Of a stretch of DNA of 64,000 nucleotides, positions 45,139 to 48,100 are shown one piece after another. Positions within the stretch are counted from its first letter, which is position 1. Each line of letters starts with the position of its first letter. Position numbers: made by a program. Location: assembly GCF_044324785.1 (NCBI RefSeq), contig NZ_CP172127.1, one strand, 5' to 3'. Source of the DNA: Escherichia coli. GTDB taxonomy: Bacteria; Pseudomonadota; Gammaproteobacteria; Enterobacterales; Enterobacteriaceae.

Positions 45139-48100
45139 TGATCAGGTGCTGCATGACGTGGCAATTCAAAAGCTTCCGGTCCTGTTCGCCATCGACCGCG
45201 CGGGCATTGTTGGTGCTGACGGTCAAACCCACCAGGGCGCTTTTGATCTCTCTTACCTGCGCTGCATACCGGAAATGGTCATTATGACCCCGAGCGATGA
45301 AAACGAATGTCGCCAGATGCTCTATACCGGCTATCACTATAACGATGGCCCGTCAGCGGTACGCTACCCGCGCGGCAACGCGGTTGGCGTGGAACTGACG
45401 CCACTGGAAAAACTGCCAATTGGCAAAGGCATTGTGAAGCGTCGTGGCGAGAAACTGGCGATCCTTAACTTTGGTACGCTGATGCCAGAAGCGGCGAAAG
45501 TCGCTGAATCGCTGAACGCTACGCTGGTCGATATGCGTTTTGTGAAACCGCTTGATGAAGCGTTAGTTCTGGAAATGGCCGCCAGCCATGAAGCGCTGGT
45601 CACCGTAGAAGAAAACGCCATTATGGGCGGCGCAGGCAGCGGCGTGAACGAAGTGCTGATGGCCCATCGTAAACCAGTACCCGTGCTGAACATTGGCCTG
45701 CCGGACTTCTTTATTCCACAAGGAACACAGGAAGAAATGCGCGCCGAACTCGGCCTCGATGCCGCCGGTATGGAAGCCAAAATCAAGGCCTGGCTGGCAT
45801 AATCCCTACTCCACTCCTGCTATGCTTAAGAAATTATTCATAGACTCTAAATAATTCGAGTTGCAGGAAGGCGGCAAACGAGTGAAGCCCCAGGAGCTTA
45901 CATAAGTAAGTGACTGGGGTGAACGACAAATCCGCATGGAGCGGATTTGAACGCTGCTTGCAGCGGCCCTGTTAAGGGTGAGGCCCATGGATGGGCCGAA
46001 TAACTCGCAGCCGCAGCACATGCAACTTGAAGTATGACGAGTATGGCAGGAGTGGCAGCATGCAATACAACCCCTTAGGAAAAACCGACCTTCGCGTTTC
46101 CCGACTTTGCCTCGGCTGTATGACCTTTGGCGAGCCAGATCGCGGTAATCACGCATGGACACTGCCGGAAGAGAGCAGCCGTCCCATCATTAAACGCGCA
46201 CTAGAAGGCGGCATAAATTTCTTTGATACCGCCAATAGCTATTCCGATGGCAGCAGCGAAGAGATCGTCGGTCGCGCACTGCGGGATTTCGCCCGTCGTG
46301 AAGACGTGGTCGTTGCCACCAAAGTGTTCCATCGCGTTGGTGATTTACCGGAAGGATTATCCCGTGCGCAAATTCTACGTTCTATTGACGACAGCCTGCG
46401 CCGTCTCGGCATGGATTATGTCGATATCCTGCAAATTCATCGCTGGGATTACAACACGCCGATCGAAGAGACGCTGGAAGCCCTCAACGACGTGGTAAAA
46501 GCCGGGAAAGCGCGTTATATCGGCGCGTCATCCATGCACGCTTCGCAGTTTGCTCAAGCACTGGAACTACAAAAACAGCACGGCTGGGCGCAGTTTGTCA
46601 GTATGCAGGATCACTACAATCTGATTTATCGTGAAGAAGAGCGCGAGATGCTGCCGCTGTGTTATCAGGAAGGCGTAGCGGTGATTCCGTGGAGCCCGCT
46701 GGCGCGGGGCCGTCTGACACGTCCGTGGGGAGAAACTACCGCACGACTGGTGTCTGATGAGGTGGGGAAAAATCTCTATAAAGAAAGCGATGAAAATGAC
46801 GCGCAAATTGCGGAGCGGTTAACGGGCGTCAGCGAAGAACTCGGTGCAACACGAGCACAAGTTGCGCTGGCCTGGTTGTTGAGTAAACCGGGCATTGCCG
46901 CACCGATTATCGGAACTTCGCGGGAAGAACAGCTTGATGAACTGCTGAACGCGGTGGATATCACCCTGAAGCCTGAACAGATTGCCGAACTGGAAACGCC
47001 GTATAAGCCGCATCCGGTCGTAGGATTTAAGTAAATTTCGCTTTTCAGCCATTTTATCTGCTGAATTCCCCATCGTCTGCGATGATGGGGACAACGTACC
47101 TCCCATCACCTTCTGTAACCATAATCCACCTCTGCAACAAAAAATTCTTGGTGATTAAATTTACAGCTATTCATCGTCTTCATCCCTTTGAGCGATTTTT
47201 GATAGTTTCTCCAGGTAATATCCCCTAAAACTGTCTTATTTAGTCAATGTAAGAGGATTACAATCATGATGAAAACCATCACCAAACAACCGATCCTGTT
47301 TACTGATGTACCGGTTGCAGATTTAAGAAATTCAATGAAGCACGATTTAAATCAAAATCTTATCGAAAGGCTATGGAACAAAATTCGTGATTTTTTTCTG
47401 GACAGTGATAAACAAAAGGCATTTAAATCGATTCATAAATACATCAATACATTGTCAGTTCTAAATTATAATTCAGCGTTAACTCCAGATCCCAACTTTA
47501 ATATAGATGCAACGTCAGATTTAGACTCATATTTAAAGCTGGATTTTGATCGCCTCTCGCCCAAACAAAAGCAGACCACGCTTTGTTGTTTCTGGAATAA
47601 AATTGCATCCTCATTGCCAGAGCCATACAACAGTACCATCAAACATAACATTATTTTTTATAAAGACGGAGAAAATCTGATGATACGTGGAACTATCTCT
47701 ATTGTTAACGAGGTAGTAAAGACTTATTCACTCCCAATAGAAAAGGATGACAATGGATATTACGATTTCAGCGGTCTATATCTAGCACACAGCAATATTT
47801 CCGGTAAAGATCCCAATAAAGATGCCGATAAAGATTTCGGTATAGATATGGGAAACTGTAACTGCTCAAATGTCAACTTCGAACATACTTATTTTGATGG
47901 CGTCAAGTTTACAAATGCGAATTGTACAAATGCTAATTTTAACAATTGTAGATTTAAGAAATGCGATCTAACAAATATGAATTGCACTGGAGCAATTCTT
48001 GATAATGCGATGATATATGGTAAAGAAAAAGAACCTGAGATGCAATATCCAGAAGCAGATCAAATAATACAAAGGATAACTTATCAGAAATCACATGGGA

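Follow-up and report, generated by a model that had tools for sequence, protein, structure and literature searches.

A long ERIC repeat with an internal four-hairpin module in the loop of a conserved hairpin between dxs and yajO of Escherichia coli

We report on the 257-nt spacer between dxs and yajO in a 64,000-nt stretch of Escherichia coli DNA (assembly GCF_044324785.1, contig NZ_CP172127.1; hereafter the window, with positions counted from its first letter), which holds an ERIC (for enterobacterial repetitive intergenic consensus) repeat, or intergenic repeat unit (IRU), with an internal 80-nt module. In our judgment the spacer is probably a nested structure, in which a basal stem couples yajO translation to dxs, the ERIC and the module are self-folding passengers, and the module is ancestral and was lost in ~98% of E. 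coli; its anatomy, conservation, allele distribution and folds were computed, and from these we infer the coupling and the neutrality. Three nested layers would be transcribed with the operon. In the first, the putative functional core, the sequence 9-25 nt past the dxs stop codon would pair with the yajO ribosome-binding site, leaving the Shine-Dalgarno sequence paired and the AUG free; ribosomes finishing dxs would melt the 5' arm and thus allow yajO translation (translational coupling), or the stem would be opened otherwise. The second layer would be an old ERIC, i.e., a miniature transposable element, in the loop of the basal hairpin, tolerated there because it folds back on itself and keeps both arms together. 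The third would be the 80-nt module, inserted at the standard ERIC right-arm site and probably a near-neutral passenger. The features are as follows.

43940-45802, + strand: dxs coding sequence (TAA stop at 45800-45802; from the open reading frame (ORF) list; named dxs in E. coli 18KM2445)
45803-46059, + strand: dxs-yajO spacer, 257 nt, the subject of the analysis
45811-45826, + strand: basal stem left arm, with the anti-Shine-Dalgarno sequence CTCCT (45815-45819) and the perfect 10-bp core CCACTCCTGC (45811-45820); from inverted repeat and fold
~45841-46044, + strand: ERIC (IRU) repeat, long form, 204 bp, i.e., ~126 bp of ERIC plus net 78 bp; from alignment to K-12 and to ERICs at other loci, and from primer matches
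45888-45919, + strand: ERIC central hairpin CCCCAGGAGCTTAC / GTAAGTGACTGGGG; inverted repeat, in the minimum-free-energy fold
45926-46006, + strand: four-hairpin RtT-type module at the ERIC right-arm site, absent from K-12; from alignment and covariance model R1 (86.6 bits, E = 2.8e-20)
45927-45949, + strand: module hairpin H1, CAAATCCGC, loop ATGGA, GCGGATTTG; 5/9 pairs covary across 47 copies
45952-45965, + strand: module hairpin H2, CGCTGC TT GCAGCG; folds, 3/5 pairs covary
45966-45979, + strand: module hairpin H3, GCCCT GTTA AGGGT; folds, 99.1% of cells paired
45982-45997, + strand: module hairpin H4, GGCCCAT GG ATGGGCC, followed by the tail GAATAAC (45998-46004); 5/6 pairs covary
46040-46055, + strand: basal stem right arm, where GCAGGAGTGG has the yajO Shine-Dalgarno sequence AGGAG (46048-46052), 7 nt before the ATG; from inverted repeat and fold
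46060-47034, + strand: yajO coding sequence, 324 aa (homologues span 100% of the 324 aa from this ATG; named yajO in 18KM2445)

The evidence for the basal stem starts with the 10-bp inverted repeat that the first-pass annotation had seen on both sides of the element. The repeat is exact and its left arm is at 45811-45820 as given, while the right arm lies at 46046-46055 and not at 46048-46057; the repeat is matched twice in the window, where chance would give 0.14 matches. At 88% complementarity, the paired stretch reaches 16 nt (45811-45826 with 46040-46055), and the left arm starts 9 nt past the dxs stop codon. In the predicted fold, CUCCU just past this stop pairs with the yajO Shine-Dalgarno AGGAG, and the ERIC sits in the loop. 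We fetched the dxs-yajO spacers of Salmonella enterica, Citrobacter koseri, a second Citrobacter, Scandinavium goeteborgense and four further relatives, all of which are 56-62 bp long, have no ERIC and keep the hairpin GCTCCTGCTATGCTT...GCAGGAG(T/C)GG (GCTCCTGC...GCAGGAG); the basal hairpin is present in the 10 spacers compared, and the gene order dxs-yajO and a short structured spacer are conserved in relatives. At one stem position, E. coli has A-U, Scandinavium G.U, and Salmonella and Citrobacter both G-C. Partition-function folding of six species or forms gave a probability of being unpaired for the Shine-Dalgarno sequence of 0.000 in the window, 0.00-0.01 in long, short and ERIC-less forms and 0.20 in Escherichia albertii, with the yajO AUG ~0.9 unpaired. 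Since the flanking inverted repeat is absent from the ERICs at yeiS-preT and yehK-yehL, it lies outside the ERIC consensus. As far as the aligned sequences tell, the bracketing repeat is a conserved hairpin that is older than the ERIC and not part of it, and its recognition as a conserved anti-Shine-Dalgarno hairpin may be new. A stem that is conserved without the ERIC and that occludes the Shine-Dalgarno sequence points to dxs-yajO coupling, not decoupling.

The whole spacer on the + strand is predicted to form a single stem-loop, closed and branched, of -124.5 kcal/mol (z = -9.2; 0/200 shuffles as stable), which bears out the earlier proposal that the spacer folds into one long stem-loop. 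The K-12 spacer takes the same fold without the branch (-80.4 kcal/mol, z = -8.5). The antisense strand folds more weakly (-110.7 vs -124.5 kcal/mol); this better fold of the + strand, together with an excess of G.U pairs in the module alignment described below, suggests, mildly, RNA-level structure on the transcribed strand. A terminator and promoter scan of 45500-46400 returned one weak promoter-like match at 45826-45855 and no intrinsic terminator (GC-rich hairpin plus T-run) in the spacer on the + strand. As the spacer has no terminator, the ERIC should be part of the mRNA, and dxs-yajO co-transcription is plausible.

An ERIC carried in the mRNA is also the starting point of the main rival explanation, i.e., mRNA processing or stability, which we regard as possible and on the whole doubtful. 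According to it, the ERIC hairpin and the module would be a substrate of, or a barrier to, RNases (RNase E, RNase III or a 3' exonuclease), so that the dxs and yajO segments would be found at different levels, differing by allele. There is a precedent: reviews describe Yersinia ERICs that are co-transcribed at gene 3' ends and lower the upstream transcript in an orientation-dependent manner by exposing a site for RNase E in their right terminal repeat (PMC2229807, PMC10969869). The great stability of the spacer structure and the lack of a terminator fit this explanation too. However, the basal stem is retained in relatives that have no ERIC, which makes the ERIC dispensable for the conserved function, and the module was lost in 98% of E. 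coli while both alleles persist.

Coming back to the nested spacer, its second layer is a long ERIC of an already known kind. Its limits were set by aligning the spacer with the K-12 spacer and with the ERIC copies at yeiS-preT and yehK-yehL; it aligns end to end with these two and with the K-12 dxs-yajO copy, leaving ~126 bp when the insert is taken out. The targets of the ERIC-PCR (polymerase chain reaction) primers ERIC1R and ERIC2 are found at 45882-45903 (- strand) and 45904-45925 (+ strand), each matching at 21/22 bases with 0 chance matches expected. At the same locus, K-12 has an ordinary 127-bp ERIC, and the window has 80 bases (45927-46006) in place of AT, a net gain in length of 78. 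Extra internal sequence had indeed been claimed before, at about 70 bp, and the internal hairpin then quoted (CAAATCCGC/GCGGATTTG) is exact, its halves at 45927-45935 and 45941-45949 being 100% complementary. Because K-12 carries the ordinary form here, the window copy is not the ordinary 127-bp form; the alignment suggested earlier, which could have revealed an ordinary ERIC with the flanking repeat in its consensus, was run and found the ordinary form in K-12 at this locus and the repeat absent from the ERICs at the two other loci, so the refuting outcome did not occur.

The ERIC is intergenic, between co-oriented genes. By Megablast the median E. coli genome has 6 ERIC places, and the window has 1 copy. 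At the edges, the K-12 element reads TTCA-TA-GACTC...CGAGTA-TA-GCAGG, and the Scandinavium-type spacer …TTATGTTCAT/CGCAGGAGTGG (the slash marks the junction, here and below) looks like an empty site, TTCATCGCAGG; this fits a TA duplication, with the ends of the element ambiguous. The 56-bp spacers of Salmonella and Citrobacter keep the last 16-22 nt of the ERIC (GAAGAGTGACGGGTAT as compared with the ERIC end GAAGTATGACGAGTAT, …GAAGAGTGACGGGTATAACAGGAG), so the ERIC was already in the hairpin loop in their common ancestor with Escherichia and was later almost fully deleted there. Rfam has no ERIC family, and the spacer region gave only three sub-threshold matches, to AaHKsRNA22 (taken up below), V_AS5 and isrH. 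The V_AS5 match (a Vibrio family, weak, 20.5 bits) covers the left half of the ERIC at 45841-45949 and the isrH match (Salmonella, weak, 13.9 bits) the right arm at 45996-46039; these two families may themselves contain ERIC-like repeat sequence.

For the third layer, the history of the long and short alleles is informative. A long form covering the whole spacer occurs in 122/5426 complete E. coli genomes, and nearly all others, like K-12, give two pieces totaling 223 bp. Over 4034 bp, the E. albertii type strain aligns collinearly with the window and without any difference in length, and it therefore has the same long ERIC at dxs-yajO. Compared with the window, its dxs is 91.5% identical, its yajO 90.1%, its spacer 96.9% and its insert 98.8%, i.e., between the two species the spacer is more conserved than either flanking gene, and the single-nucleotide differences of the spacer outside the insert are species-specific. 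Within E. coli, the long alleles are found in diverse strains, including 042, ST2747, porcine O139:H1 and APEC O2-211, at 1.6-2.8% from the window over 2.8 kb. A neighbor-joining tree was built from 2656 ungapped columns; in it, the nine long alleles and the six short ones make up sister groups, and E. albertii falls outside both. In every 300-nt segment, E. albertii is as far from the long group as from the short group, which speaks against a recent transfer; import of the long allele from E. albertii was rejected on this equidistance and on the species-specific spacer differences. From these alignments, the 127-bp form of K-12 is most likely a single 78-bp deletion early in E. coli, with the long form ancestral in Escherichia. 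Of the earlier description of an enlarged ERIC, it stands that the element is larger than the 127-bp form of K-12; judging from E. albertii and the allele tree, this greater length is probably ancestral in Escherichia rather than gained.

The junctions allow a closer look at the putative deletion. The module is bounded by CGA on both sides (GAACGA/CAAAT… and …GGGCCGA/ATAAC). Slippage between the CGA repeats predicts GAACGA-ATAACTC-GCAG, whereas K-12 reads GAACGA-AT-GCAG (GAACGA-AT-GCAGCC); the AT of K-12 is plausibly what is left of the module tail, a further 5 bases having gone. That the K-12 form is the derived one at dxs-yajO may be new; we found no description of this locus and its length polymorphism in the literature searched.

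A recent nested insertion would reverse this order of events: a small mobile element would have entered an existing 127-bp ERIC in this lineage and made a new allele. We disfavor this explanation and think it improbable. It draws on the presence of the module in many ERICs at identical sites and in unrelated contexts (tRNA T-loops, copies of the 5S 3' end, a second MITE, or miniature inverted-repeat transposable element), always in one orientation as in targeted insertion, and on the fact that only 2% of E. coli carry the module at dxs-yajO. Nevertheless, E. albertii carries this insert at the identical site, between flanks that are species-specific, the long alleles are diverse (up to ~2.8%) and not nested within the short ones, and most genomes with the long dxs-yajO form have no other copy as donor (median 1 place per genome). 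A gene-conversion donor within the genome was considered as well and rejected, since most long-allele genomes hold only the copy at this locus.

Whether lost or gained, the module has a well-defined structure. Alone it folds at -39.8 kcal/mol (z = -4.6). Alignment A2, of 47 diverse copies, supports the four hairpins: 96.2% of cells are paired, 14/25 pairs changed on both sides, and the covariation score is 0.435 against 0.135 in shuffled alignments (0/500 shuffles reach it) and ~0.05 with slid partners. The search pattern fixed the invariant linkers of the module in advance, but not its covarying stems. G.U-type cells number 28 and A.C-type cells 13 (p = 0.03), which is only suggestive as the cells are not independent. 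Covariance model R1, built from A2 with no RtT sequence in the seed, finds 45926-46003 as the sole copy in the window (86.6 bits).

Within E. coli, the 80-nt block is present in 649/5426 genomes, usually once, and occurs in the ERICs at yeiS-preT, at yehK-yehL and upstream of gyrA. The gyrA-side ERIC (strain SC516) has a second, diverged module copy at the mirror site of the left arm, in the same orientation as the right-arm insert; R1 scores the left-arm insert at 46.6 bits, and this insert type is found in 616 E. coli genomes including O157:H7. One ERIC on a viral contig has a third insert site, after GAGTTGCAGG. All four E. coli loci with long ERICs are sense-oriented, which may be chance; no clear orientation bias of ERIC-embedded modules relative to flanking ORFs was seen from crude ORF calls (++ 12, -- 7, -+ 9, +- 3). 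The weakest BLAST match of the block lies 3' of the 5S rRNA beside murB, between the rrnB terminators T1 and T2, where R1 gives 76 bits. With the module removed, the flanks of this T1-T2 stretch align with the 5S 3' end and T1, the module standing between GTAGG and AACTGCC; the T1-T2 region thus repeats the 5S 3' end and terminator and carries the module.

Beyond E. coli, the degenerate linker pattern ACAAA…TTTGAACG…CGGCCC gave at least 120 stretches in species-representative genomes, copy numbers and taxonomic range being lower bounds. Among the matches listed, we sorted 117 credible module copies by context: 45 at the ERIC right-arm site, where Serratia oryzae alone has >30, 5 in ERICs whose two arms, left and right, are connected by the module, 13 in a second, unrelated MITE, 8 in rrn trailers and followed by a copy of the 5S 3' end, 4 in Pasteurellaceae, 9 with a 10-18 nt copy of the neighboring tRNA's 3' end directly after them, and 33 unclassified, ~8 of which adjoin tRNA genes. 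The 45 right-arm copies, from several genera, have the junction GGGGTGARYG/ACAAAT...GARTAAC/ in common. The tRNA-linked copies read […GGTTCG][module][ATCC + tRNA 3' end, CCA], which looks as though the module had interrupted a T-loop; in one case, it is the D-loop of tRNA-Ser that is interrupted (GGTCG^A). The second repeat family, …GGGCAGTGCTCRC/module/CCTCACGTAC…GTACGCTCCGG…, has a shortened three-hairpin version of the module, and one soil Proteobacteria metagenome-assembled genome has >12 copies of it beside long ERICs. Serratia oryzae J11-6 has >30 long ERICs with near-identical modules in one genome, which suggests that the long form was amplified as a unit in that species. Modules also form tandem arrays of 2 to 5, beside tRNA genes or within repeats, which recalls the 3.14 tyrT repeats. 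Ten stretches with the module on viral contigs had no neighboring tRNA genes and no candidate mobilizing enzyme.

The tyrT repeats, of the RtT type, deserve a direct comparison. In a 2.5-kb search of the K-12 tyrT locus, R1 recovered each of the four RtT repeats over its whole length (22-26 bits, E = 2e-6 to 2e-5), with H2-H4 and the GAGUAA tail aligned and H1 diverged. In the other direction, the Rfam RtT model (RF00391, gathering score 45 bits) had no match in 44500-47500 at E <= 1; it covered three tRNA-linked copies at full length at 34-38 bits, under the gathering score. Since R1 matches all RtT repeats, the ERIC insert is the core module of RtT-type repeats, yet below the RF00391 threshold. 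AaHKsRNA22 (RF02902, Aggregatibacter sRNA 22) likewise scored the window insert below its gathering score of 39.8 (25.2 bits, E = 0.076). The junctions of the module look like insertions into G^AA sites similar to the tRNA T-loop: GGTTCG^AATCC in tRNA, GAGTG^AATCC and GAACG^AATGC in ERIC, and TAGGG^AACTG in 5S. We tentatively suggest, without placing much weight on it, that the ERIC insertion is one case of an unrecognized and widespread ~75-nt four-hairpin module, always in one orientation, which would also be the RtT core, the rrnB T1-T2 spacer, AaHKsRNA22, many tRNA-linked repeats of marine and other Gammaproteobacteria, and an insert in at least two MITE families. Uniting the ERIC inserts with RtT, the rrnB T1-T2 spacer and AaHKsRNA22 may be new; the literature searched contained no link of ERIC with RtT, tyrT or rrnB, with key older papers outside this search, so an earlier description is possible.

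The module is homologous to the RtT core and to AaHKsRNA22, and it could act as an RtT-like small RNA, cut from the dxs-yajO transcript and working in trans as proposed for the tyrT rtT RNA and the Pasteurellaceae small RNAs. RtT-family RNAs were seen on Northern blots in Actinobacillus (PMC4986893), and the strong compensatory evolution of the module (the paired cells and covarying pairs of A2) fits such a role. We nonetheless consider it quite improbable for dxs-yajO: the window module does not have the tRNA-like closing stem and CCA tail that define the RtT ends (no CCA-ending copy of a tRNA 3' end follows it in the spacer sequence, the tRNA genes of the window not having been scanned), it is buried in the ERIC multiloop, 98% of E. 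coli lost it at this locus, and the function of RtT itself is not firmly established. A transcription terminator or decoupler between dxs and yajO, which a large stable stem-loop might bring to mind and which had been proposed to separate yajO from the ispA-dxs transcript, is very unlikely indeed, since no hairpin plus U-tract was found on the + strand in 45500-46400, the stem predates the ERIC, covers the yajO Shine-Dalgarno and ends at the ribosome-binding site rather than at a T-run, and the dxs-yajO order with its short structured spacer is conserved in relatives.

The nested spacer with translational coupling thus stays our preferred explanation, and several points weigh against it. The case for coupling consists of the predicted pairing and of the distance from the stop codon, and a terminating dxs ribosome would reach only the lowest 5-6 pairs of the stem. 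Conservation of AGGAG is expected of any ribosome-binding site, so the anti-Shine-Dalgarno arm is the only one whose conservation is informative. The basal stem of E. albertii is weakened by two substitutions, giving one A.A mismatch and one G.U pair. The strong conservation of the module structure across bacteria suggests some role, and 'passenger' may understate it. As for ancestry, the K-12 junction is not the exact product of a single CGA slippage, the direction of the indel rests on one outgroup genome (E. albertii), and the sampled long and short alleles differ by only 3 fixed differences, 2 of which are the junction itself.

The findings explain a spacer length difference among E. coli strains, which is relevant to ERIC-PCR typing, and the 'canonical' K-12 ERIC at dxs-yajO is most likely a deletion product. 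The conserved hairpin probably ties the synthesis of YajO to that of Dxs; both enzymes make 1-deoxy-D-xylulose 5-phosphate, hence its relevance to isoprenoid pathway engineering. The module would link four separately catalogued things, i.e., ERIC inserts, RtT RNA, the rrnB T1-T2 spacer present in many vectors, and a Pasteurellaceae small RNA family. If they are truly one module, an unknown spreading route or a conserved RNA function is implied, and where the ERIC insertions and the tyrT repeats came from, long unexplained, becomes one question that can be tested.

Upstream of dxs, the locus has the following genes, from the ORF list and the 18KM2445 annotation.

42774-43016, + strand: xseB
43016-43915, + strand: ispA

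The start of yajO is the ATG at 46060. A 347-aa ORF runs from 45991, an in-frame ATG within module hairpin H4, and yajO was listed as 347 aa because of this ATG; the N-terminal extension (45991-46059) exists in the long allele only and has no Shine-Dalgarno sequence, and homologues and annotation begin at 46060. Small ORFs on both strands of the spacer had no credible Pfam match, the best being DUF4233 (E = 0.03, under its cut-off). Between yajO and pgpA, the window has a 525-aa ORF (47266-48843) whose 18KM2445 counterpart is annotated as the type III secretion system effector EspY3, a pentapeptide-repeat protein; in K-12 no gene lies between the two, and pgpA follows yajO directly. The 2.8-kb dxs-yajO stretch 44300-47100 has a best identity of 98.4% among the 5426 complete E. 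coli genomes, and the 301-bp spacer query is 100% identical to some of them; the window strain is outside this collection and is mosaic or divergent at 44300-47100.

Finally, we compare the spacer with known systems. ERICs, or IRUs, were reportedly described by Sharples & Lloyd in 1990 and Hulton et al. in 1991. The window element is like them in its core with both primer sites, its imperfect palindrome, its intergenic place in an operon, its long RNA hairpin and the several dispersed copies per genome, and it is unlike them in its length of 204 bp vs ~127 bp, owing to the internal module. Sharp (1997), Cromie et al. (1997) and Wilson & Sharp (2006) are said to have described ERICs enlarged by ~70-bp insertions at specific internal sites. 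The dxs-yajO copy is similar to these long ERICs in that its insert occupies the right-arm site also used at yeiS-preT, at yehK-yehL and upstream of gyrA in E. coli, as well as in Serratia, Dickeya and Yersinia, and in that the insert keeps a well-folded structure, but at this locus the long form seems to be the ancestral one and the short form the derived one.

Among structured RNAs, RtT comes from 178-bp tyrT repeats reportedly described by Bösl & Kersten in 1991. It has H2-H4, the linkers GA(A/G)CG and GA, and the GAGUAA tail in common with the window insert, whereas the insert is without the upstream GAUGAGAA hairpin, the tRNA-like closing stem and the copy of the tRNA 3' end, differs in H1, and is embedded in an ERIC between protein-coding genes and not in a tRNA operon. 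The rrnB T1-T2 region, familiar from cloning vectors, has the same module, hairpin order and linkers (82.5% identity over 56 nt to the window insert), but inside a second copy of the 5S 3' end and terminator and not in an ERIC. AaHKsRNA22 has the same hairpin order and linkers as well, its Pasteurellaceae copies scoring ~80 bits with RF02902 and 31-45 bits with R1, and differs by a fifth hairpin in RF02902. The basal stem, for its part, is comparable to intercistronic hairpins that occlude a ribosome-binding site and so couple the translation of adjacent genes. As in those, an anti-Shine-Dalgarno sequence right after the upstream stop pairs with the downstream Shine-Dalgarno and is conserved across genera; unlike those, coupling at dxs-yajO is only predicted, and the loop holds a 204-nt self-folding repeat.

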